Source of the DNA: a virus
Taxonomy: Duplodnaviria > Heunggongvirae > Uroviricota > Caudoviricetes
Virus record (IMG/VR): IMGVR_UViG_2861079508_000001
Direction: 5' to 3' (one strand)
Length of the DNA: 64,000 nt
Below, in pieces: positions 34,217 to 45,241 of the stretch. The number at the start of each line of letters is the position of its first letter. Within the stretch, counting starts at the first letter, position 1. The notes beneath the pieces are model-generated. The model saw only the letters and a program-made list of their open reading frames with translations, was not told the origin of the DNA and made no database searches. The position numbers and the translations under genes are program-made.

Positions 34217-34449
34217 GTTGGCTTCCCTTTATTTATATTTATCGCAGGTATTAGTTAATCAAAACACGAGCAGTGCCACAATAATTAAATGGCGTACTAT
34301 TTCTTATGGTTATTAGTTTCCTAGTAACTTTACCGACCATAAACTAAATCAACAAAGCTGACATATTAACTAAATTTAAGTACCATTTTTCGCACACTTG
34401 ACACTTGCCGCGTCTAAACTGTTCATCCTATATCAACAGAACAAAAAAT

Positions 34450-35595
34450 ATGAAATACATAAAATCTTCATCGTTGCTGGCATTAACTTTGCTTTTTAGC
34501 TCTGGATTCGTTAACGCAGACAATAAACAAACGCTGATAGAAGCCGCTACCGCAGGGGATACCGCAGCACAAAGTGAGTTAGGGACAAATTATTTTGATG
34601 GTATCAATGGTTTTGATAAGGATGTAGTTGAGGCCAAGAAGTGGATTGATCTCGCTGCAGAAAAGGGAGACAAAGTAGCATATTATGCACTTGGGGTTAT
34701 GTACACATTTGGCGAGGGTGTAGATAAAGACTTAAATAAAGCAGTTGAGTACTACAAACTTGCGGGAGATGCTCGTGAAGGTAGAGCCTATAACAATCTT
34801 GGTGCTATTTATCAAAAGGGGATGCTTGGTAAAGTAGATCATGCGCTCGCCATTAAATACTTCAAACTAGCCTCTGATGCCGGGTATGTTAAAGCTAGCT
34901 ACCTTCTTGGTGCGTATTACCAATATGGTAAAGGTGTACAAAAGAGTTATAAAAAAGCTTTTACTTATTACAAAAAAGCGGCGGATCAAGGTAGTTCAGA
35001 TGGCATGTTCGCATTAGGCACCTTATACGATGACGGTTTAGGTGTTAAACGCAACGATGCCGAAGCAATTAAGTGGTATAAAAAAGCTGCTGAACTCGGA
35101 AACGCCGATGCCATGACAAATCTTGGCATTATGTATGAGTATGGTGAAGGGGTTAAAAAAGACTATAAAAAAGCAGCTGAGCTTTATCAGGCTGCTTGTG
35201 ATAAAGAAGATAAAAATGGCTGTGATTACATTGCAGAACTGAAAGAAAGCGGCAAATATCGAGCGCCGGCTTCCAAAGCCAAAACAAAATCCGCCACCCA
35301 GCGACTTATTGCTAAATCCATTGATAAGGGCGTTAACGCTACATTTACCTGGCAGGGTGATGATGCTACCTTCACCGCTAATGATGGCAAAGTTGACTGC
35401 ACCTTCCTGAAGGATTTTTCAGAGAAAGGAGGCAATCTGGCTACCTCGTTTGTTTGCACCGATAACGTTCAAATCATACTGAAGCAATTCAGAGATACCA
35501 AGAATGCCTACCTCGCGGTAATGACTGACAACTTCAACACAGAAGTTAAATCATTTTCGGTCAATGTGTACGTGACTAATACTGGTTCAAACTAA
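34450..35595 (+). CDS. secreted Sel1-repeat (TPR-like) protein
   Basis: signal peptide MKYIKSSSLLALTLLFSSGFVNA; repeated A..YY.LG.MY..G.GV.KD...A..W Sel1 units; ATG at 34450 preferred over track start 34405. Confidence 0.75.
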   Translation: MKYIKSSSLLALTLLFSSGFVNADNKQTLIEAATAGDTAAQSELGTNYFDGINGFDKDVVEAKKWIDLAAEKGDKVAYYALGVMYTFGEGVDKDLNKAVEYYKLAGDAREGRAYNNLGAIYQKGMLGKVDHALAIKYFKLASDAGYVKASYLLGAYYQYGKGVQKSYKKAFTYYKKAADQGSSDGMFALGTLYDDGLGVKRNDAEAIKWYKKAAELGNADAMTNLGIMYEYGEGVKKDYKKAAELYQAACDKEDKNGCDYIAELKESGKYRAPASKAKTKSATQRLIAKSIDKGVNATFTWQGDDATFTANDGKVDCTFLKDFSEKGGNLATSFVCTDNVQIILKQFRDTKNAYLAVMTDNFNTEVKSFSVNVYVTNTGSN

Positions 35596-36840
35596 TGCTG
35601 CTATGCCTTTTACCTTGCTTAAAAGTTCAAGCTGTCGTGAGTAAGGTTTTGCGCAATAGTAGGCTTTGATAATCTGCCCCGGGGTCGCATCGCCGGGGTC
35701 GAGTCCTTCCTCGCCCAAACATGCAATTTTCACATTAAGACCGATACTGGTCAGTCGCCTGGCTGCGGCCATAGTGTTTCGTATAGCTTGCTTTTCACTA
35801 TCCCACATCATGATCACATTACGTAATCCACGCGCCTTGAGCGTCAGGAACGCGCCCAACTGATCTTCTGCATCCTGAGTGGTGTTACCAGATAGATGCA
35901 TCCCGAACGTTCCTATTGGTTCCACGTAATCGCGTAATGTTTCTTCGTCAAAAATAGCTCGTTTGACCCCCATAACATCGAACGCCCCCTCACAGACAAC
36001 TACAGTCTGTTTGCCGACTGCATTGTGGCCGTTGTAGAGAAACTTACCTGAAGCTGGAAGCTGCATAGGAAAGAGGTAGCGGCGTTCTGCTGTACCGGTA
36101 ATGTCTCGTCCTTGAAATGTCTTCATTACCCCATCCAGATCGTAAACCGGTATCAGTATTCGCATATCGAAAATCTGTCCTTTAACCTGATCTGTATACG
36201 GATCTACATAAGCGTGCTTGCCTTCGACGCAGTATCGTAGGTCAAAATACTTTGCCATTTCAGGCGATATATTTCGTTCAACCAGATAGTCTGGAAGATG
36301 GCCATCTATAGGAAGATCGTAATGACGAGGGAGTGCAACTGGTCCCTCTAACTCGACTGTGCTTGCAAGCACTATCTCTTCTTTCTTTGGTGCCCACCCC
36401 TGGGAAAGAAGAGCGTTCTGCACATATTCCTCGAACTGTCGTCGTGATTTACCGCTGTAGTGCTTGAGGAAGACCAGCTTATTGAACTGAATCTCTTCGG
36501 GATGATCACCAGCGAAGCATTTACCGACGCCACTGGTCAGATTGAAATATACCTTCCAGTTGGAGCTGCCGCATACCGGACACTCCTTGATATTCACTTC
36601 ACGACCGCGAGTACTCACGCCTCCACGTCGATAAACGATACCTTCAGTATCCAACCATTGTTCAAAATCTAATTCGGTAATTAGCTCTTTCAGCTCGCTC
36701 ACGATAATTCCACTTTTAACAGGCAATATTGTGACCAACCTAAATGTTGATATAACATAAAGGCTCATGTGTTTTTCTTTTGTGGTTTGGCAAAAGAAAA
36801 GTTGTTTCACCAATGAATCAAGCGTGGAGGTGTTCTCCAC
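35587..36840 (-). CDS. DNA primase (zinc-ribbon plus TOPRIM)
   Basis: CPVCGSSNW...C..GDH zinc ribbon; TOPRIM-like VVVCEGAFDVMG; start uncertain (ATG at 36768 possible). Confidence 0.7.
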   Translation of the reverse strand: MENTSTLDSLVKQLFFCQTTKEKHMSLYVISTFRLVTILPVKSGIIVSELKELITELDFEQWLDTEGIVYRRGGVSTRGREVNIKECPVCGSSNWKVYFNLTSGVGKCFAGDHPEEIQFNKLVFLKHYSGKSRRQFEEYVQNALLSQGWAPKKEEIVLASTVELEGPVALPRHYDLPIDGHLPDYLVERNISPEMAKYFDLRYCVEGKHAYVDPYTDQVKGQIFDMRILIPVYDLDGVMKTFQGRDITGTAERRYLFPMQLPASGKFLYNGHNAVGKQTVVVCEGAFDVMGVKRAIFDEETLRDYVEPIGTFGMHLSGNTTQDAEDQLGAFLTLKARGLRNVIMMWDSEKQAIRNTMAAARRLTSIGLNVKIACLGEEGLDPGDATPGQIIKAYYCAKPYSRQLELLSKVKGIAALV

Positions 36841-36849
36841 GCTTATTTT

Positions 36850-38190
36850 TTAGGTAACGTCTAAGATTCGCTCAATGAAGCGCATTTGTTCGAGGTTTTG
36901 TTTAACGCGAATGCTGATCCCTCCCTGCTGGTTACGCGAACCAGCAAAGTAGAGACGAGCCTCTCCTTTCGCTTCTTCTTCTTCGGTTTTGTTGATCGTT
37001 ATTACCAGGTCAGCAATACGTACTTTTTCGATGTTGTCGGCAGCGTGCATCATTGTGGCAACTTCTGACGCGCCACCTTCACGGTTTGTTTGCGACGCCG
37101 TGATACCAGCAACGTTATGCTTGTCATAAAGAGCACGTAAATCGGTGTAGATACTACGAATGTTGGCGCGATCATCACGAAGGTCATAACTGGCACGCAT
37201 CAAATCTGCGTAGTCGACAACAACCATGTCAGGCACCATGCCATTGGCTTTCATACTGTTAAGCATACGGTCCAGATCTGCCGGTGACATACTTCCTGAC
37301 GGACGCTCAACAACCCACAAACTACCAATCCCCTTCGTGGCTCCCAACTCTGCCAACTTGCGATGAACTTCATCGCGCCGTTCCACCAGCTTGGACATTT
37401 CCGTCTCCGACAATCTTGCATCAAAACGGTCGGACAAAATGGTGGTGTGAACCTCCAGCGAGAGATACAGAACATTGTAGCCAGCAAGCGTAGCGTTTAT
37501 GGAAAACTCACCCATTGCGGTCGATTTACCGGATTTAGCAAAACCCATGAAGAGCACCATTTCGCGCTTTGCCCAGCCTTTTTGGTACAGCAATCTATCA
37601 AGCAGAGGGAGTCCAGTTGTAATGCTGTTTGGCACATACTCCTCTGAAGCCTCATATTCACGCGCTTTCAATCGCTCACTTGCGGAGGTGTAGTAGTCAT
37701 AGATTCCGGTCGCTTCGTTCGAGCCTATCTGCTGAACCTTGGCCATGATTGCCATCGCCCCCTGAAAGTCGCCCTTCTCTTTCAGTTCAGCAGCTTTAAT
37801 CAGAGCATCATCAAACGCTACACTTTTTGCGAATGTGGATACCTGGTCAACCATGTACGAGGTATCAGACAATTTTTCTGCAAGGATGCGCTTAAACGCA
37901 GCAACAACATCCGGGAAGAGTTCCTCACGGATGGTCTTATCGCGTTTCGCACGCTTAAGCATATCCAGAATCGCAGATGAAGAAGGCGCGCTCTTGTACA
38001 TACGGTAATAGCCCGAAACCATATTAACCAATATGGCATTGGCCGCATTGGCAAATTGGCTAGGCACAACCAGATCTCCCGCACGAGTAAGAAACTCGTG
38101 ATCACGACAAAAATATGCCGTCAGTCTGTTCTGGAAATCTTCATCAAACTCTTCGGACAGCCCGCGTCCTGTATGGCAAAGTTCGGTCAT
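36850..38190 (-). CDS. DnaB-like replicative DNA helicase
   Basis: 446 aa; Walker A GFAKSGKST in RecA-like C-terminal domain; ATG at 38190 with AAGGAAAG ribosome-binding site. Confidence 0.8.
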   Translation of the reverse strand: MTELCHTGRGLSEEFDEDFQNRLTAYFCRDHEFLTRAGDLVVPSQFANAANAILVNMVSGYYRMYKSAPSSSAILDMLKRAKRDKTIREELFPDVVAAFKRILAEKLSDTSYMVDQVSTFAKSVAFDDALIKAAELKEKGDFQGAMAIMAKVQQIGSNEATGIYDYYTSASERLKAREYEASEEYVPNSITTGLPLLDRLLYQKGWAKREMVLFMGFAKSGKSTAMGEFSINATLAGYNVLYLSLEVHTTILSDRFDARLSETEMSKLVERRDEVHRKLAELGATKGIGSLWVVERPSGSMSPADLDRMLNSMKANGMVPDMVVVDYADLMRASYDLRDDRANIRSIYTDLRALYDKHNVAGITASQTNREGGASEVATMMHAADNIEKVRIADLVITINKTEEEEAKGEARLYFAGSRNQQGGISIRVKQNLEQMRFIERILDVT

Positions 38191-38209
38191 GTGCTTTCCT
38201 TTGTTTTTT

Positions 38210-38225
38210 AAACAAATTGTTTTCT
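38210..38225. promoter_or_regulatory. motif A (AAACAAATTGTTTTCT) upstream of helicase gene
   Basis: 20-35 bp upstream of ATG 38190. Confidence 0.4.
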
Positions 38226-38233
38226 AGTATTAG

Positions 38234-38983
38234 TTAATTAGATAGGGGATCAATAAACCGCCGTGCTTCTTCCAGTTCTTCTGGAAAGTGGGCGGAAATA
38301 AGGCGCTCTGGAACGATTTCCATTAGCCAGATAGCGGAGAAAATTGCGCGTATGCGCTTGCTGCGGGGGATGGTGCGTAAACGCTCCAGAATCCACTCAA
38401 AATAGCTTTCCTGGATCGGGTTGAACTGCATGTCTCCCATATGCTTAAAGCTAACTAGAGAGTCATCCAGACGGGTTGTTGCGCGTCTGGCTAATTTCTC
38501 TTCGAATATCTCAACCAGCTCTGGCTGCCATAAATGCTGTGGGCGCGGCAGCTTGTCCCACAGCCGTCGTGCAGCTGCGGAAAGAACGGTGGAGATAAAG
38601 TAGTCGTATGAGCAGCAATAGCGGTCAGCAAACTGGCGTGCTTTCCATAGAGACGTTTTATTGGCAGTCGACAACTCCTGATAAGGCAGGCGTTTTAACC
38701 CGGTGGTGAACGGAGCTGTTTCAAAGTGTTCGCGACCGTGCGTCAGCATGATATTTGAGTACTGACGTTTGTATGCCTCCGTAAAAAGACAGGTGGCCAT
38801 GAGAGGATGCATGTCGCGGTAATCAAACCACTTCGTCTCGAAGAGTTCAGCCTCGTCTTTACAGCGCGACAAACCAATGTTTTCAGCGACCCACTTGTCC
38901 ATAACAGCGGTATTCCACTCTGTCATGAAGTCGTACTGGTCGTTGTCGATGGTATCGAAAAAGATTTGGCTCATGTGGCTCAC
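38234..38983 (-). CDS. hypothetical protein (about 246 aa; ATG probably at 38974)
   Basis: ORF with AGGTGA ribosome-binding site; motif B abuts it. Confidence 0.4.
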   Translation of the reverse strand: MSHMSQIFFDTIDNDQYDFMTEWNTAVMDKWVAENIGLSRCKDEAELFETKWFDYRDMHPLMATCLFTEAYKRQYSNIMLTHGREHFETAPFTTGLKRLPYQELSTANKTSLWKARQFADRYCCSYDYFISTVLSAAARRLWDKLPRPQHLWQPELVEIFEEKLARRATTRLDDSLVSFKHMGDMQFNPIQESYFEWILERLRTIPRSKRIRAIFSAIWLMEIVPERLISAHFPEELEEARRFIDPLSN

Positions 38984-38985
38984 CT

Positions 38986-39008
38986 GGTAGGTAGTTACTT
39001 ACTTATCA
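38986..39008. promoter_or_regulatory. motif B upstream of 38234..38974 gene
   Basis: GGTAGGTAGTTACTTACTTATCA. Confidence 0.4.
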
Positions 39009-39090
39009 CAATGAGCGGATGATAGCGACTGGTGGCAGTTTTTGGAAGTGGAAACGGAAGGGAGTTGTTCTGGTGGTGTCTTTTAAAAGA

Positions 39091-39144
39091 CCTGCTTCCG
39101 TATATATTTAATAAGTTACTTATTATTTATATATACAGAAGCAG
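39091..39144. promoter_or_regulatory. 54-bp imperfect palindrome (arms CCTGCTTC(C/T)GTATATAT...) centred on a motif B core AATAAGTTACTTATT
   Basis: read directly; intergenic upstream of the GIY-YIG-like gene. Confidence 0.5.
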
Positions 39145-39256
39145 GCATAACTTGTCGTCTTAGACGCCCAGAAGCTCTACACTTTGAGCCTGTTAAATTG
39201 ATTAAAAACTTATGTGTAAAATAGAACGCATTAGTCAGTAGCAAAGAGATGCAATA

Positions 39257-40024
39257 ATGGACGATTTATCGGTATACGCGAGATCATTGGATAAGGCTAA
39301 ATACTATGTTTACTGTCTCTATGATACAGAAGACAAGATGAAAAGACCGTTTTACATAGGAAAAGGCAAATCGACTCGTTGTCTCGATCACATCAAGTAT
39401 CCCGATGACTCTCCCAAATCCATGCGGATCAAAGAACTTTTGGCTAATAAAAAATTAGGCATAGATATACTTCGTCATGGTATGGATGAAACCACAGCCA
39501 AACTTGTTGAGGCGACATGCATCGACCTTATGGGGGTCGGAGAGCTTACGAATAAGGTACGAGGAAGTGGTTCCATGATGGGCAGAATATCACTGGACGC
39601 CTACCATCACTTAGTGCTGCAAGAGGAAACTGAAATTGCTCCTGAGCACGCCGGTCTTGCCTTCCTGCTAAACAGCACCTACAAGTCAGGAATGTCCGCT
39701 CTGGCATTATATGAGGCTACGCGTGGCGTATGGGCAAAGGTTCCAAGAGACGAGAATCTCAAATATGCCTACGCTACATATGGTGGGCTGATAATGGAAG
39801 TTTATCAGATTGAATGCTGGGTCAAAGCCGGTTCTCAGCAGTACTTTACAAGGGATATAGCTCTTGGCCCCGACACAAAACGTTATGAATTTGTTGGCAG
39901 AATAGCCGATGAGCATATTAGAAAACTGTATGTAGGCAAATTAATCAAGAAGCCACCAAGCTACGGTAGCCCTTTTGTGAAGGTTGGGGTGGTTAGGACT
40001 GAACATAGTGTTAGCGCGGCATAA
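39257..40024 (+). CDS. GIY-YIG-like nuclease domain protein (possible free-standing homing endonuclease)
   Basis: N-terminal KYYVYCLYDTEDKMKRPFYIGKGKSTRCLDH resembles the GIY...YIG...R...H pattern; plus-strand orphan behind a 54-bp palindrome. Confidence 0.4.
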   Translation: MDDLSVYARSLDKAKYYVYCLYDTEDKMKRPFYIGKGKSTRCLDHIKYPDDSPKSMRIKELLANKKLGIDILRHGMDETTAKLVEATCIDLMGVGELTNKVRGSGSMMGRISLDAYHHLVLQEETEIAPEHAGLAFLLNSTYKSGMSALALYEATRGVWAKVPRDENLKYAYATYGGLIMEVYQIECWVKAGSQQYFTRDIALGPDTKRYEFVGRIADEHIRKLYVGKLIKKPPSYGSPFVKVGVVRTEHSVSAA

Positions 40025-40076
40025 AGCTGACACTGTAGTTATGCATTGGCGCAATGTACGCGCCAATGCATGATTT

Positions 40077-40436
40077 TTAACCTTTCTTCATCAACTCTCG
40101 TTTGATTTCATCGGTACGCATCGTGACATCGGCAGCGGTGATCGCCTCATTCAATTTCACGATGTCCTCGATTTCCTGCGGTGACTTCTCTGCCAGATGG
40201 AAAATGGCTGCTCGAATCACGTCAGAACGAGTGAACTTCTCGAAGCGAGGGATGAACTTCATCATCTCCAGCAGTTCGAAGTATTCGTCCTCCAGTGACA
40301 TTGTGCGGCTTTTAATTTTCTCTTTGCCACGAGTCGGGCGTCCCTGTGGTCTGACTGGTTGGCGCAAAGGAGTTGTGTTCTTAGCCGGTGCATCAGGCTC
40401 TTTGCGCTTTGCTAGGTCACCCATTTTCATGGACAT
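40077..40436 (-). CDS. ParG-like centromere-binding protein (ribbon-helix-helix), partner of ParA
   Basis: 119 aa; basic N-terminal tail, C-terminal ribbon-helix-helix-like segment; 1-bp overlap with parA. Confidence 0.5.
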   Translation of the reverse strand: MSMKMGDLAKRKEPDAPAKNTTPLRQPVRPQGRPTRGKEKIKSRTMSLEDEYFELLEMMKFIPRFEKFTRSDVIRAAIFHLAEKSPQEIEDIVKLNEAITAADVTMRTDEIKRELMKKG

Positions 40437-41104
40437 TATTCTTCTTCCTCCAGACTCAACAGATAATCTACAAATTCTTCAAACTCGGCTTCCGCCTTTT
40501 TGTCGCGCTCGCTACCGGTCATTTCAAAGATAGAACGACCAGACTCTTCCGCATCATCATAGACGTTGCGGTTATATAGATTGACTGGCGCAGACTCGAT
40601 GCCAAACGTCTCAACAATCTCTTTAGCCGCCAGAATGCGAGACACTTGTGATGGCAAAGCCGGGCACTGGTTCATGACCGCGCGGACCTTCACTTTATCG
40701 TTTACATTACGAACATTGTCGATAATAGGATCGATGTCACGCAGAGATTTCAAATCACGACGCTTAGGACGAAGCGGGATAATGATAACGTCGGCCATCA
40801 GCATCGCTTGTCGCTGAATTTCGGAGTCAAAGCCACCAGCATCTACCACTACATACTCAGCTCTACCCTGAAGCGATTTTAGGTGCTTAATGATGTCATC
40901 CTGAACGTATGCAAAAGGAATCAGCTCAAGGTCTTCGTTCTGTCGACGGTCTTCACACCAGCTCGTTGTCGTGCGCTGAATATCTATATCGGTGATATAA
41001 ACCTTCTTCTTCTTTTTGACTTTCAGGCAAACGGCAATTTGCTGGGCAACGGTGGATTTGCCAGGCCCGCCCTTTGTGCCGCCAACCACAAAGATCTTGG
41101 TCAT
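40436..41104 (-). CDS. parA: ParA/ParF-type partition ATPase
   Basis: 222 aa; deviant Walker A GGTKGGPGKST. Confidence 0.85.
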   Translation of the reverse strand: MTKIFVVGGTKGGPGKSTVAQQIAVCLKVKKKKKVYITDIDIQRTTTSWCEDRRQNEDLELIPFAYVQDDIIKHLKSLQGRAEYVVVDAGGFDSEIQRQAMLMADVIIIPLRPKRRDLKSLRDIDPIIDNVRNVNDKVKVRAVMNQCPALPSQVSRILAAKEIVETFGIESAPVNLYNRNVYDDAEESGRSIFEMTGSERDKKAEAEFEEFVDYLLSLEEEE

Positions 41105-41139
41105 TGGAGAGTTCCCTTTGCGTATATAATTATCGTCTG

Positions 41140-41155
41140 AAACAACTTGTTTTCT
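41140..41155. promoter_or_regulatory. motif A (AAACAACTTGTTTTCT) upstream of parA
   Basis: 36-51 bp upstream of ATG 41104. Confidence 0.4.
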
Positions 41156-41258
41156 TATATGTGATATAGCCTAAATGCCTACGGCTGTGGTGTAAAGGTT
41201 AAATGGTAGGTGCTGCCTTAGAATTTTTAGGCGAGAATCAATGGCTGTTAACAAAAAA

Positions 41259-41282
41259 GGCGACCAAAGTCGCCTGATTTTT
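41259..41282 (-). terminator. intrinsic terminator GGCGAC-caaa-GTCGCC flanked by A/T runs
   Basis: read directly; minus-strand reading ends in TTTTTTGT after the stem. Confidence 0.65.
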
Positions 41283-42033
41283 AATCTTTTAGGTATAAAC
41301 CTACTGGAGTTCTTGTTTTGCGGGAGATGATAAGTACGATAAATTTCTGAACGTTAACTTGCACTTTGTTTGGGAGCCAAGAGCTTAACTCTGCATCAAG
41401 CAACAATCCTCTGTTCCACGGCAAAAATCCGGTTTCTTTCCCCATCCCGTACTCGCCTAACACATCCTCGAACGTTTCTGTTTTGGCATTGTATATACGC
41501 ACATCGCCGGTTCGCATGAGAGGCCCTGCCCAGATCTTAGCACCAGGAATGGTTTGTGTATCGTCGCAGACTAAATGCTCATACCAATGAAGAAGAAAGA
41601 GATAGGTACGGTGACACAATCCTCGCTGACGACGCTCTCTGACAGTTTCGACACCGGCTACCTGGTAACATTCGATCTCATTACCGTCTTCAACAAAACT
41701 ATATTCACGCAGAGCTATCCTACCAGCGATCGTATTTTTGTTTTCGTCCAGAAGCCCGGACTGGAGCACCTCTTTGATAATCTCTTCTTCAGGGGCATCT
41801 TCATCCGCTCGATCTAAGATGAATTCGCTCAGGTCGCCTTGGTCGCGCGCACCTACAAGTTCCATAGAGACATACAGGCAAATGTCATCTTCTGGTTCAA
41901 TGATTTCAATTTCTGAGATTTTATAGAGGGAGGCTTCATTGATAAGAAAGCCAAAACGAACAACACGAGTCTCCCCTTTATGAGGAAACTCGCTTAGATC
42001 TTTTGAATATGCGCTATCTAGTGTAGGAGCCAT
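41281..42033 (-). CDS. hypothetical protein (250 aa)
   Basis: ORF only. Confidence 0.4.
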   Translation of the reverse strand: MAPTLDSAYSKDLSEFPHKGETRVVRFGFLINEASLYKISEIEIIEPEDDICLYVSMELVGARDQGDLSEFILDRADEDAPEEEIIKEVLQSGLLDENKNTIAGRIALREYSFVEDGNEIECYQVAGVETVRERRQRGLCHRTYLFLLHWYEHLVCDDTQTIPGAKIWAGPLMRTGDVRIYNAKTETFEDVLGEYGMGKETGFLPWNRGLLLDAELSSWLPNKVQVNVQKFIVLIISRKTRTPVGLYLKD

Positions 42034-42401
42034 TTTGTAGCAGAATCATCAGCCTTAACCGTGCTGACAATGCTACCATGATTGCGTAAGAAGCGGCGAA
42101 TAGAATGTTCAATAACCTCCGAAAAAGCCTCGATAAAACGAGACAGCTCAGGGTACTGTTTAGCTGGCTTGACTACAAAACGAACACGACCATTCAGGTA
42201 AATTGCTTCAGCTAATGGCTTCACGCTTGCACCAGCGCGCTCAACATCGTCTTTGAAGGTAACGATGAAGCGTGAGTCTTCCGGTTCAATAGCGTCATTA
42301 TTGAGCTTACGTACTTCAAGCTTGTGCTGATTCAGCACATGAGTCTCGATAATACTCGTGCAATCGCGAATAGTTTGTATAGAACGTTTCTCGTTCAGCA
42401 T
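42018..42401 (-). CDS. hypothetical protein (127 aa)
   Basis: ORF only. Confidence 0.4.
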   Translation of the reverse strand: MLNEKRSIQTIRDCTSIIETHVLNQHKLEVRKLNNDAIEPEDSRFIVTFKDDVERAGASVKPLAEAIYLNGRVRFVVKPAKQYPELSRFIEAFSEVIEHSIRRFLRNHGSIVSTVKADDSATKWLLH

Positions 42402-42625
42402 GTGTCCACCTTAGCCGTTAACACAAGTGTCATTGCGGCACCCCTCTCGGGGTTGAAGGCTACGAGGATGCGTAGCCTGTATGTGCCCACTTACGTGGAT
42501 GCCTAATAAATCTACATCAAATTACTAAATGATTCAACATGAGCTTGAGTGAACAGGCGTGTATATGAGTGAAGATGCCATCTTTAGGATAAAAGGTAAA
42601 CTGAGACCACTCATCAATCATCGAC

Positions 42626-42958
42626 TCAGTTCAGGTGCCCCCACTCACACAGCCTTTCACCTATCGTATTGTGGATAAGCAACTGTCGCTCCGTTTCCTC
42701 AGTCATAAAATCCTCTCTACTCACATAAATAGGATTTGCAGCATCGCAGAATAGCACGCCTGGAGCCTGCGTCTTAATCACGCACCCATTTATCAAACAG
42801 CTCGCGATGAACACCAGAGGCATCTTTTTGCCGCACTTCATTAACCGTTTCATTTTTGACATCCACTGTGCTTTGAAGTCGTTTTCTGTCTTCCTGTTTT
42901 GCCTTCTCTTCCATTGCTCGTCGCGCCGCATTTCCGCCCATCGTGTAAGCGCCGACAA
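42626..42958 (-). CDS. possible o-spanin (Rz1-like lipoprotein), probably starting at an internal Met
   Basis: lipobox-like FIASC within MKRLMKCGKKMPLVFIASCLINGC; out of frame within the upstream gene. Confidence 0.35.
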   Translation of the reverse strand: MSALTRWAEMRRDEQWKRRQNRKTENDFKAQWMSKMKRLMKCGKKMPLVFIASCLINGCVIKTQAPGVLFCDAANPIYVSREDFMTEETERQLLIHNTIGERLCEWGHLN

Positions 42959-43025
42959 GAACGAAAAGAACGGCAGCCAGCGTAATCAAAGCAACTTTTA
43001 GCTTTGTCATCAGGCTGCCTAGCAT
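42774..43025 (-). CDS. possible i-spanin (Rz-like) membrane protein
   Basis: N-terminal helix LKVALITLAAVLFVLVGAY then charged helical region; overlaps the putative o-spanin ORF. Confidence 0.4.
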   Translation of the reverse strand: MLGSLMTKLKVALITLAAVLFVLVGAYTMGGNAARRAMEEKAKQEDRKRLQSTVDVKNETVNEVRQKDASGVHRELFDKWVRD

Positions 43026-43026
43026 A

Positions 43027-43746
43027 TTAGACCATCCCTTTCTGGTGTTTTCTTACCTGCGACCAGGCAATGAATCCTGCCACAACAATAGTGGCAATAC
43101 CGAAGATGATGCGTACTGTATCCCCGCTAGAGATATGACCTTGTGCTTTATCCATAGCAGCGGAAACCTGCGGCATAACATCGGCAAGCTGCGCCAGACC
43201 AATACCTGCTGTGACAGTTGCGCCTGCGGTTTCTTTAGTTACAGGAACAGCCTTCACGGTTTTCACCGGCTTAACGACGCCGGCTCGACGCAGACCTTCC
43301 TCAATAACTTCTGCCGCATACCAGGTGTTCAGCGTTTTTAGTGGACCTCGACCATTCTCGTGGCGAATGATTGCCTCAACCAAAGGTCGAAGGATGTCGT
43401 AATCATGCAGATCGATGATCATGTCTGCGGTTACACCAACGGCTTTAGACACCTCATTAATGTAGGCGTCAGTGTTGTTTTCATTCGGCGGTGCCCAACG
43501 TTCAATAACTTCACGAATGGTATCGATACTTGAGCCGTCTTTTGCGCGACGTTTGTCGTGGTAGGTAATTAGAGTCACCGCCAGCGCACGAATCCCCCAA
43601 ACAGGGTCTTTAAACGTGCAAAAGCGCGGTTCGTCTGGATTCGCAACCAGACCTTGCCACGGTGATCCTTTATCAAGATTACCGGGGTTATTATTACGAA
43701 TGCCTCTCGGAGTCTTCATCCTTGATCTCCTGTTATTGCAGTCCAT
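43027..43746 (-). CDS. putative endolysin / cell-wall hydrolase with C-terminal transmembrane helix
   Basis: position between holin-like and spanin-like genes; N-terminal GIRNNNPGNL motif; C-terminal IIFGIATIVVAGFIAW; family not confidently recognised. Confidence 0.4.
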   Translation of the reverse strand: MDCNNRRSRMKTPRGIRNNNPGNLDKGSPWQGLVANPDEPRFCTFKDPVWGIRALAVTLITYHDKRRAKDGSSIDTIREVIERWAPPNENNTDAYINEVSKAVGVTADMIIDLHDYDILRPLVEAIIRHENGRGPLKTLNTWYAAEVIEEGLRRAGVVKPVKTVKAVPVTKETAGATVTAGIGLAQLADVMPQVSAAMDKAQGHISSGDTVRIIFGIATIVVAGFIAWSQVRKHQKGMV

Positions 43747-44068
43747 TTTTTACGCCATACGCGGCTAACCCCAAAAGCAGTGCAGTAATAATGAACGACG
43801 TTATTTTAGAAACAATGCCGCCAAAGAACCCACTGGAGATGGAATCTAACCGGTTAAGGAGTTTGTCCAGATTGGAGTGTTGAATACTATGTTGCGCCGG
43901 GGTCATATCACCAAAGTAGGTTTTCAGCTGATCATTGACCTCCTGGCCAATTTCTTCACGTAGCTCTTTACCTAATTTGCCAACAACCTCCCGAGCAACG
44001 ATCGCGGCAATACGCTCAACTTGCTCTGTTGTAACGCTCGCCATCTCGTTCGACATGTTTTCCTCCAT
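43733..44068 (-). CDS. holin-like protein with one C-terminal transmembrane helix (start probably ATG at 44057)
   Basis: GGAGGAAAAC then ATG at 44057; C-terminal ITSFIITALLLGLAAYGV. Confidence 0.4.
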   Translation of the reverse strand: MEENMSNEMASVTTEQVERIAAIVAREVVGKLGKELREEIGQEVNDQLKTYFGDMTPAQHSIQHSNLDKLLNRLDSISSGFFGGIVSKITSFIITALLLGLAAYGVKNGLQ

Positions 44069-44118
44069 GAAAAGTCAAATCGGGATGGCGGATTTATATC
44101 ACATTTCACCCTTTTATT

Positions 44119-44140
44119 GTAGGTGTGTACCTACCTATCA
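44119..44140. promoter_or_regulatory. motif B variant upstream of holin-like gene
   Basis: GTAGGTGTGTACCTACCTATCA. Confidence 0.4.
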
Positions 44141-44371
44141 TTCAGCATTGCAACGGACTGATGAGAAAGCACCTACTCCTACCCATCGCCAGTTATAGAT
44201 ACTACCCGCTTTGTATAAGGTATAGTCGTTCACTTTTTTAACAGCATATATGGGTATGACTGTCTCCTGTCCACCAATGATAGCCTCACCGTAACATATA
44301 GGTGTCGGCAATTTCTGGCAGCCAGTAAGAGAGAGAACAACAGCTATTATTAGAAATAATCTTTTCATCAT
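44138..44371 (-). CDS. small lipoprotein (77 aa), possible superinfection-exclusion factor
   Basis: MMKRLFLIIAVVLSLTGC has a lipobox; sits between lysis genes and tail-fiber genes. Confidence 0.5.
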   Translation of the reverse strand: MMKRLFLIIAVVLSLTGCQKLPTPICYGEAIIGGQETVIPIYAVKKVNDYTLYKAGSIYNWRWVGVGAFSSVRCNAE

Positions 44372-44378
44372 TTACTCA

Positions 44379-44987
44379 TCAGTTATACAGATTTCTATTT
44401 ATTACCGGTACTCTGCCATTTACGCTAAAACTATGGCCGCCATTAAGTTGGTTTACGAATATCGAGCTAACAGTATTTCCATATGCCGCATATCCATAAA
44501 CCATTGTCATGGCTCCGCCCGGTACTGGAACAGCGAACACATTCGCATATGTTGGGATTATCGCTGGTGGGTAATCAAAAACATGCCCTCCAGAGCTGTT
44601 CCACTCCGTATTATTAAGAAAGGTAAATGAAAGTGGGATATTTGCCGTATTATAGATTTCCTCCCCTTGTGCATTGAAAAAACTCATGCCCCAAGTTTCT
44701 TTTTTGGCTATACCTTTCGAAAATACGTATATCGTGGCACTAGAGTCGCTACCCTGACCTCCGAAACTGTAAATCACCTGGTTGTTACGCACTATTCTGT
44801 TGGCTATTAATGAAACAGCTTTCGAATAGGCAACAAAAATCATCGGTGAACGATCTGGAGATATTTGGGTGTTAAACTCTGTCCCGCCGGACAAAGAAAC
44901 AACCTGCTTTCTCTGAAAAACGATAGGAGACAAAGAAGGAGACATCCAGACCTTCCCGTCAGATCGATATATCTTGCTTCCGTACAT
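44379..44987 (-). CDS. hypothetical tail-fiber-associated protein (202 aa)
   Basis: ORF directly downstream of the tail fiber locus; Gly/Ser/Asn-rich. Confidence 0.35.
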   Translation of the reverse strand: MYGSKIYRSDGKVWMSPSLSPIVFQRKQVVSLSGGTEFNTQISPDRSPMIFVAYSKAVSLIANRIVRNNQVIYSFGGQGSDSSATIYVFSKGIAKKETWGMSFFNAQGEEIYNTANIPLSFTFLNNTEWNSSGGHVFDYPPAIIPTYANVFAVPVPGGAMTMVYGYAAYGNTVSSIFVNQLNGGHSFSVNGRVPVINRNLYN

Positions 44988-45241
44988 TATTTTTGAAAAA
45001 CCAATATGTTTAAATTACCACTAGCTCCAGACCACGAAATGGTATTTCCAGAAACCGTAAGACTTGTGTATTTTCCATTGGTTACGTCCATTATGTAATA
45101 GTCGATTCCCAATCCCGCCTCAACCTCATATGTTCTACTTCCTGAACCAGAGGGAGTAAAATAATCGAGGTAATAAACAGGGGCCAACGCATCGACCATC
45201 TCCTGTCTTGATGGCGACCAAACCTGTGCACCATAGCTCAT
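44987..45241 (-). CDS. hypothetical tail-fiber-associated protein (84 aa)
   Basis: ORF; 1-bp overlap with the next gene. Confidence 0.35.
   Translation of the reverse strand: MSYGAQVWSPSRQEMVDALAPVYYLDYFTPSGSGSRTYEVEAGLGIDYYIMDVTNGKYTSLTVSGNTISWSGASGNLNILVFQK

Follow-up and report, generated by a model that had tools for sequence, protein, structure and literature searches.

A predicted PD-T4-3/CMoRE-family nuclease in a variable cargo slot of an SSU5-like phage-plasmid

What does a single plus-strand gene encode that stands behind a long palindrome among minus-strand genes, and are the gene and the palindrome connected? The locus that raises this question lies in a 64,000-nucleotide stretch of caudoviral DNA (IMG/VR record IMGVR_UViG_2861079508_000001), referred to here as the window. 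Region 39091-40024 of the window consists of a palindrome (39091-39145), a 111-bp spacer and a plus-strand open reading frame (ORF, 39257-40024). The initial annotation, made from the sequence alone, described the ORF as a GIY-YIG-like orphan gene and proposed that it might be a free-standing homing endonuclease or a nuclease effector, with the palindrome as its target site, an operator or an origin-like element. We consider it likely that the gene instead encodes a PD-T4-3/CMoRE-family nuclease directed against modified phage DNA and carried as swappable cargo of a phage-plasmid, and that the palindrome is a backbone element with no specific link to the nuclease.

Family and predicted fold of the nuclease

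The coding sequence and its two domains map as follows:

39257-40024, plus strand: nuclease coding sequence, 255 amino acids, stop codon included; product identical to RefSeq WP_000342417.1
39296-39565, plus strand: GIY-YIG motif stretch, Y17-V-Y19 ... Y33-I-G plus R41, H45, E85 and N99
39590-39991, plus strand: C-terminal domain, approximately residues 112-245, homologous to the CMoRE modification-sensing domain

The strain E. coli ECOR68 yielded PD-T4-3, a defence system of one gene that acts against T-even phages; it was later renamed CMoRE (PMC12923530). CMoRE is a type IV restriction endonuclease whose C-terminal domain binds 5-hydroxymethylcytosine (5hmC) or glucosyl-5hmC (5ghmC) and whose GIY-YIG domain cleaves at CN11/N9G. 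Its 5hmC/5ghmC-dependent cleavage, its two-domain structure and its protection against T2, T4 and T6 have been described; the enzyme is a tetramer and provides direct defence, not abortive infection (PMC12923530).

PD-T4-3 is the sole PADLOC match of the window protein (PDLC04031; E 1.3e-23, 81.9 bits), and the alignment covers residues 11-231 of 255 and model positions 11-238 of 256. A phmmer search against all PDB sequences matched only four entries, all of them CMoRE/PD-T4-3 (9u7u/9u75, E 2e-15), over residues 12-230, which indicates homology across both domains. Pfam gave a single match, to the LEM-3-like GIY-YIG family (PF22945, residues 32-104), at 30.1 bits against a cutoff of 27. RefSeq names the protein 'LEM-3-like GIY-YIG domain-containing protein'. 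Over its whole length the protein falls into PHROG family 5356 (function unassigned, E 1e-99), and NCBIfam returned no match.

The peptide that first drew attention to the N-terminus, YVYCLYDTEDKMKRPFYIGKGKSTRCLDH, corresponds to residues 17-45 of the 255-residue ORF. Among 33 subfamily homologs with at least 50% identity, residues Y17, Y19, Y33, G35, G37, R41, H45, E85 and N99 are invariant. The tyrosines of GIYxY-YIG are in this set, as are the catalytic residues Arg, His, Glu and Asn, and the resemblance to a GIY-YIG nuclease is borne out. The third tyrosine that distinguishes the GIYxY-YIG signature is present (K-Y-Y17-V-Y19 ... F-Y33-I-G, compared with G-W-Y17-V-Y19 ... F-Y31-V-G in CMoRE), and the catalytic residues R41 and E85, together with H45 and N99, align with their CMoRE counterparts. 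In the alignment with CMoRE, the dimer-interface residues R80 and V92 correspond to R73 and V84 of the window protein, and the interface residue L96 to an invariant cysteine (C88).

An AlphaFold2 model built with 33 homologs (predicted local distance difference test score 83, predicted template modeling score 0.77) contains two domains connected by a low-confidence linker. When the model was compared with the PDB using Foldseek, four PD-T4-3 structures ranked first, with E values of 8e-12 to 9e-11 and a probability of 1.0 over the full length, followed by the GIY-YIG domains of UvrC. The fold suggested by the N-terminal signature is therefore present in the predicted structure, and the profile score, which exceeds the curated threshold, and the alpha/beta GIY-YIG fold both place the protein in the GIY-YIG superfamily. 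By profile, sequence and structure its best match is CMoRE/PD-T4-3 (E. coli O157:H7, APEC O1 and ECOR68; PDB 9U75, 9U7U, 9U7Z and 9U8D), with which it shares the single-gene format of about 255 residues, the N-terminal GIYxY-YIG domain, the catalytic Arg and Glu, and a homologous C-terminal sensor domain. Based on these comparisons, we assign the gene product to the PD-T4-3/CMoRE family as a divergent member. The term 'orphan' does not apply, as the RefSeq entry for the exact protein has 372 member sequences and an exhaustive search yielded 1781 representative clusters at E<=1e-3, 632 of them at E<=1e-10.

The C-terminal domain displays a weak structural likeness to PUA-like readers (ASCH, EVE and YTH); the authors of the CMoRE study reported no homologue of their sensor domain (PMC12923530). 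PUA-fused type IV enzymes such as VcaM4I, the EVE-HNH proteins and those with YTH-like McrB N-terminal domains use an HNH or McrC nuclease, whereas the window protein has a GIY-YIG domain. Their structural likeness to the window sensor is marginal, and no sequence-level link between them was found. Three family representatives of 359-381 residues (P0189, P0231 and P0253) carry one GIY-YIG domain and two tandem C-terminal sensor domains, seen as second BLAST segments; they probably correspond to the extended CMoRE types of the CMoRE paper.

A variable cargo slot in the backbone

The 3 kb around the nuclease gene match E. coli plasmid pSJC33-2 at 100% identity and the Escherichia phages CMS-2020a and PhiR41_1 at 98.5-99.2%, and phage Cyrano and Salmonella phage SSU5 have only the flanks of this segment in common with the window. 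These identities and shared flanks mark the window, on sequence grounds, as an SSU5-like phage-plasmid of E. coli. All substantial genes on both sides of the nuclease (35587-38983 and 40077-45241) are encoded on the minus strand, including those for the primase, a DnaB-like helicase and a PHROG-2500 protein on the left, and for a ParG-like protein, ParA, the lysis genes and the tail-fibre region on the right. The nuclease gene is therefore inverted relative to its neighbours, as first noted. It fills a variable position in the backbone, which is delimited as follows:

39146-40076, no strand assigned: variable cargo slot of the SSU5-like backbone, from alignment with Cyrano and SSU5 and comparison of 78 loci
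39146-39256, plus strand: 5' part of the nuclease cassette, with a Shine-Dalgarno-like AAGAGA (39244-39249) and a -10-like TAAAAT (39217-39222)
40041-40078, plus strand: predicted cassette terminator, a perfect 12-bp stem (40041-40052/40060-40071) followed by TTTTT (40074-40078)
40077-41104, minus strand: partition operon and right slot boundary, with a ParA-type ATPase (40436-41104) and a 119-residue ParG-like small protein (40077-40436)
38234-38983, minus strand: PHROG 2500 backbone gene, conserved, function unassigned; left flank

For the comparison, 80 related IMG/VR loci were fetched via the neighbouring PHROG-2500 protein, and ParG, PHROG-2500 and the nuclease were located in them by tblastn. 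Both flanks were present in 74 of the 80; the 78-locus set with both flanks is made up of 75 related loci plus the window and two copies of the same element from databases. Backbone homology ends at 39145/39146, and in the window the slot is filled by a 931-bp nuclease cassette that has its own 5' region, coding sequence and terminator. The same cassette occupies the same place in the same orientation in 25 of the 74 loci. In 5 loci the slot is empty, and about 28 nt separate the parG stop codon from the palindrome, after which comes TCTTTT. Elsewhere it contains PD-T7-5 (E 6e-138), DUF2971 proteins matching PADLOC PDC-S31, a 567-residue P-loop protein (NTPase) matching PDC-S49, pairs of membrane proteins, a lipoprotein, or a 357-residue protein without a match. 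The slot accepts at least 7 unrelated types of cargo. The junctions vary by cargo type, with the 28-nt spacer kept in some and replaced in others, which argues against a single site-specific insertion mechanism.

The stem-loop that closes the cassette follows the nuclease stop codon directly and adjoins, on its other side, the stop codon of the ParG-like gene, which is convergent. Its stem is 100% complementary, and its RNA is predicted to fold on the plus strand with -25.1 kcal/mol (z -5.8). A consensus scan of 38900-40200 called no sigma-70 promoter and no terminator; we infer terminator status, both for this stem-loop and for the palindrome, from folding and position. The GC content of the cassette (0.37-0.47) is slightly lower than that of the backbone (about 0.48-0.50), a difference that is uninformative.

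SSU5, Cyrano and the majority of relatives lack the nuclease gene. The cassette was detected in 106 of 5426 complete E. coli genomes, always on plasmids; of 730 related plasmids in PLSDB, 123 cover the 3-kb query to at least 80%. In other genera, close homologs on the chromosome (75-79% identity) stand alone among housekeeping genes, outside prophages and in unrelated contexts. The cassette consists of one gene and no partner methylase or subunit accompanies it or its chromosomal homologs, as expected of a single-component system. The mutS-rpoS region is a polymorphic region in enterobacteria; in a Providencia chromosome (L084-L086) a 75%-identical single-gene homolog is found near mutS and an rpoS-like sigma factor gene, beside a small acetyltransferase gene.

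These data bear directly on the proposal of a free-standing GIY-YIG homing endonuclease of the Seg/I-TevI type, which would cleave alleles lacking the gene close to the insertion point, perhaps at the palindrome, and spread by repair-mediated co-conversion. Empty alleles do exist, yet the slot that is empty in them also takes unrelated cargo with differing junctions, and filled alleles have the palindrome intact just as empty ones do. The synteny of the related loci is that of a swappable cargo position and does not fit homing. Nor does the protein itself resemble such an enzyme: Pfam reports no NUMOD, zinc-finger or helix-turn-helix module even at E<=10, the C-terminal domain is that of the CMoRE sensor, and I-TevI scores no better than UvrC or EndoII. 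In contrast to I-TevI, the Seg proteins and T4 EndoII, the window protein has no sequence-specific DNA-binding extension and a different C-terminal domain, and its locus carries no intron or intergenic homing signature. With its 75-79%-identical relatives standing alone in unrelated chromosomal contexts as well, we regard homing as extremely improbable and reject it.

A second alternative is that the nuclease serves the lytic cycle of the phage-plasmid itself, for example by degrading unmodified host DNA in the manner of T4 EndoII or by processing replication or recombination intermediates. Such a role is hard to reconcile with an accessory gene that most relatives do without, with full-length homology to a defence enzyme that includes the sensor domain, with close homologs on bacterial chromosomes outside prophages, and with a slot shared with recognised defence genes. 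We therefore rejected the EndoII-like reading as well, and consider a lytic function very unlikely.

Taken at the level of sequence, the distribution of cargo fits a defence-gene hotspot in which the nuclease would be a single-gene defence system. As in the P2/P4-type defence hotspots of temperate phages and satellites (PMC13586616), a fixed backbone position with conserved borders exchanges unrelated defence genes among close relatives; the slot described here differs in its location on an SSU5-like phage-plasmid, where a partition-operon stop codon borders it on one side and the hairpin downstream of that operon on the other. In the literature we found no description of this slot, nor of a specific par site, origin or hotspot in SSU5/pHCM2 plasmids. 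Seven loci (L016, L070, L072, L050, L052, L037 and L082) have slot cargo without a defence-database match, namely a conserved protein of 351-357 residues and gene pairs for two membrane proteins of 214 and 136 or 253 and 140 residues. Because they occupy the same slot as PD-T4-3, PD-T7-5 and PDC-S31, the 351-357-residue protein and the membrane-protein pairs are candidates for unrecognised defence genes. The position between partition operon and hairpin offers a handle for mining unannotated defence candidates, including these proteins, from hundreds of sequenced plasmids.

Predicted activity and substrate

From its characterised relatives we infer that the window protein is a nuclease, that it depends on DNA modification, and which modification it would read. 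In the proposed mechanism, the C-terminal domain would bind hypermodified bases of incoming phage DNA and the N-terminal GIY-YIG domain would then cut that DNA, while unmodified host and plasmid DNA would be spared. For CMoRE the target bases are the 5-hydroxymethyl- and glucosyl-hydroxymethyl-cytosine of T-even phages. The gene itself moves as a self-contained cassette in the slot between the parA-parG stop codon and the backbone hairpin.

That distant members of this family can still defend E. coli is illustrated by PD-T4-3Capno, a Capnocytophaga homolog. It is a modification-dependent nuclease that protects E. coli and cuts both T4 DNA containing glucosyl-hmC and Mu DNA carrying carbamoylmethyl-adenine (PMC12366544). 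The PD-T4-3 homologs of metagenomic selections nearly always went together with restriction of T4 and not of the cytosine-containing T4-GT7 (PMC12366544). The native PD-T4-3 of E. coli NILS69 is active and spares some Tevenvirinae genera (PMC12409345).

Several observations weigh against a simple transfer of the CMoRE mechanism to the window protein. Its identity to the characterised enzymes is only 26-32% (32% in the pairwise comparison with the APEC O1 enzyme), and the global TM-score of the model to the crystal structures is low, at 0.38. The latter is probably due to the two domains being oriented differently relative to each other across the flexible linker. In CMoRE, an acidic loop over the active site keeps ordinary DNA from attack; this autoinhibitory alpha2-alpha3 loop is, in 'most' members, a negatively charged stretch of 15 residues that includes four consecutive acidic ones (PMC12923530). 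The corresponding loop of the window protein (Y48-P-D-D-S52; HIK-YPDDSPKSMR) is 5 residues shorter and contains two acidic residues (D50 and D51) in place of the DDDE of CMoRE. A short loop with 1-5 scattered acidic residues is found throughout the subfamily, so regulation and substrate discrimination could differ from those of CMoRE. The beta1-beta2 loop is, in turn, 2 residues longer than in CMoRE, and the window gene resides on a phage-plasmid, whereas the tested CMoRE genes came from other contexts. Finally, the only reported contact of CMoRE with 5hmC is made by a main-chain oxygen, that of Y127, located in a gapped and poorly aligned linker; the modification read by the window protein can thus not be inferred from its sequence.

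These differences raise the alternative that family and chemistry are the same but that the subfamily reads a modification other than 5hmC/5ghmC, or is regulated differently through its truncated acidic lid. Mu-type carbamoylmethyl-adenine, arabinosyl-hmC and 7-deazaguanines are candidates for such a modification. The low identity and the shorter, less acidic loop across the whole subfamily would be consistent with this alternative, as would the plastic specificity implied by the cleavage of both T4 and Mu DNA by PD-T4-3Capno (described as a 48%-identical homolog) and the Tevenvirinae genera spared by NILS69. On the other side stand the near-constant link of PD-T4-3 homologs to restriction of T4 but not T4-GT7 and the homology of the sensor domain along its whole length, and we consider a different substrate or regulation unlikely.

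The preferred reading, a family nuclease acting on modified phage DNA, introduces no new principle: family, structure and mechanism of the nuclease were published between 2022 and 2026. PD-T4-3 has already been listed for SSU5-group phage-plasmids of E. coli and Shigella in a DefenseFinder-based surveillance preprint, whose supplementary table mentions it 44 times, and its presence in the window is in this respect an ordinary finding. By analogy with the tested enzymes, a common phage-plasmid lineage of E. coli and Shigella could confer on its host restriction of phages with hypermodified DNA. This would be relevant to phage therapy, in which many of the coliphages used are T-even-like, and to how phage-plasmids compete with virulent phages.

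The boundary palindrome and neighbouring genes

The palindrome had been described as 54 bp long. It is real, but it measures 55 bp and is imperfect:

39085-39145, minus strand: palindrome (39091-39145) with T-tract (TCTTTT, 39085-39090), probable intrinsic terminator

Its outer arms of 17 nt are 94% complementary and its inner arms of 16 nt 88%, the imperfections being one C/A mismatch and one small bulge. All 78 loci with both flanks retain the palindrome, whether they carry the nuclease, other cargo or none, and it is also present in Cyrano and SSU5. Backbone homology resumes exactly at its cargo-side arm, which makes it the left boundary of the slot. It is a backbone element, independent of the nuclease gene, and the idea that it is the target site of the nuclease is not sustained; an enzyme that depends on modification would in any case not act on it, since it is unmodified plasmid DNA.

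We lean slightly towards intrinsic termination, of the parA-parG operon and also of minus-strand cargo, as the function of the palindrome. Its predicted RNA fold is more stable on the minus strand (-30.8 kcal/mol, z -7.9, matched by 0 of 200 shuffles) than on the plus strand (-23.7 kcal/mol, z -4.4). The T-tract that follows on the minus strand is at least 90% conserved, the sequence beyond it diverges, and a conserved T-tract is found on the partition-operon sense strand only. On that strand 99.4% of outer-stem cells pair (26 distinct variants), and at the three variable stem positions all 11 of 11 departures are G-U-compatible, with 0 of the opposite type.

Other properties of the palindrome qualify this reading. 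The simple consensus scan did not call it, and stem covariation was not above shuffle controls; the covariation is not significant, as 8 of the 12 stem pairs are invariant. At one stem position all four base combinations occur. Two loci (L012 and L045) have the whole palindrome inverted while the flanks keep their orientation, and the near-invariant arm sequence would also suit a protein-binding site. In a further locus (L042) only one stem pair is swapped; together with the two inversions, this suggests recombination or template switching within the palindrome.

The palindrome might accordingly be a symmetric protein-binding or structural DNA element, such as a ParA/ParG centromere, an operator of the replication operon or an origin-associated cruciform. 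An element of this kind would account for arms in which 8 of 12 outer pairs are constant amid diverging DNA on either side, and its function would have to tolerate inversion, as in the two flipped loci. It would also suit a position between the partition and replication modules, the missed terminator call, and the failure to find a convincing repeat array upstream of parA that could serve as an alternative centromere. However, centromeres and iteron origins usually form arrays, whereas the 64-kb window has the arm motif once, all further matches being no better than chance; this speaks against a centromere or iteron set of the array type. The location about 28 nt past the parG stop codon in empty-slot loci, the strand-specific T-tract and the uniformly G-U-compatible departures are likewise better explained by a terminator, and we regard the binding element as a serious alternative, though the less probable of the two. 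Rfam returned only a chance-level microRNA match (E 0.59) for the palindrome. An inverted-repeat scan of the whole window, seeded with 9 nt, did not pick up the palindrome, in which no exact run exceeds 8 nt, and was unusable as background.

If the palindrome is the terminator, transcripts of the partition operon would cross the nuclease gene in antisense before reaching it. The cassette hairpin is unlikely to stop them, since it has a U-tract only on the plus strand, and such read-through could dampen nuclease expression. Combining these considerations, we can put forward, tentatively and with more doubt than confidence, that the short-lid subfamily reads other modifications or is otherwise checked, for example by antisense read-through from the partition operon that ends 931 bp further on; that the slot is an undescribed hairpin-anchored defence hotspot of SSU5-like phage-plasmids; and that the sensor is a very divergent PUA-like (ASCH/EVE/YTH) reader and not a new fold.

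On the far side of the palindrome, the non-coding segment 38984-39084, which extends to the start codon of the PHROG-2500 gene, is strongly conserved, without change between the window and SSU5. Its minus-strand sequence is CCCTTCCGTTTCCACTTCCAAAA, with three TTCC-containing repeats. The PHROG-2500 gene is the first of an operon that runs on into the DnaB-like helicase and primase genes, and the segment is possibly the promoter, operator or leader of this replication operon. Beyond the cargo slot, the ParA-type ATPase matches PHROG 164 ParA (E 2e-51) and Pfam ParA/MipZ/CbiA, and the partition operon also matches PHROG 5111.

The backbone has a second variable position upstream of parA, at 41281-42401, where the window carries minus-strand genes for a PHROG-3307 protein of 250 residues and a protein of 127 residues. 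Neither has a match in Pfam, NCBIfam or PADLOC; at this position Cyrano encodes a KacT-type acetyltransferase toxin and its antitoxin. There is also a second plus-strand accessory gene amid the minus-strand genes, at 34405-35595. Its 396-residue Sel1/TPR product, a tetratricopeptide repeat protein in RefSeq, has a hydrophobic N-terminus and six Sel1 repeats (Pfam E 7.6e-53).

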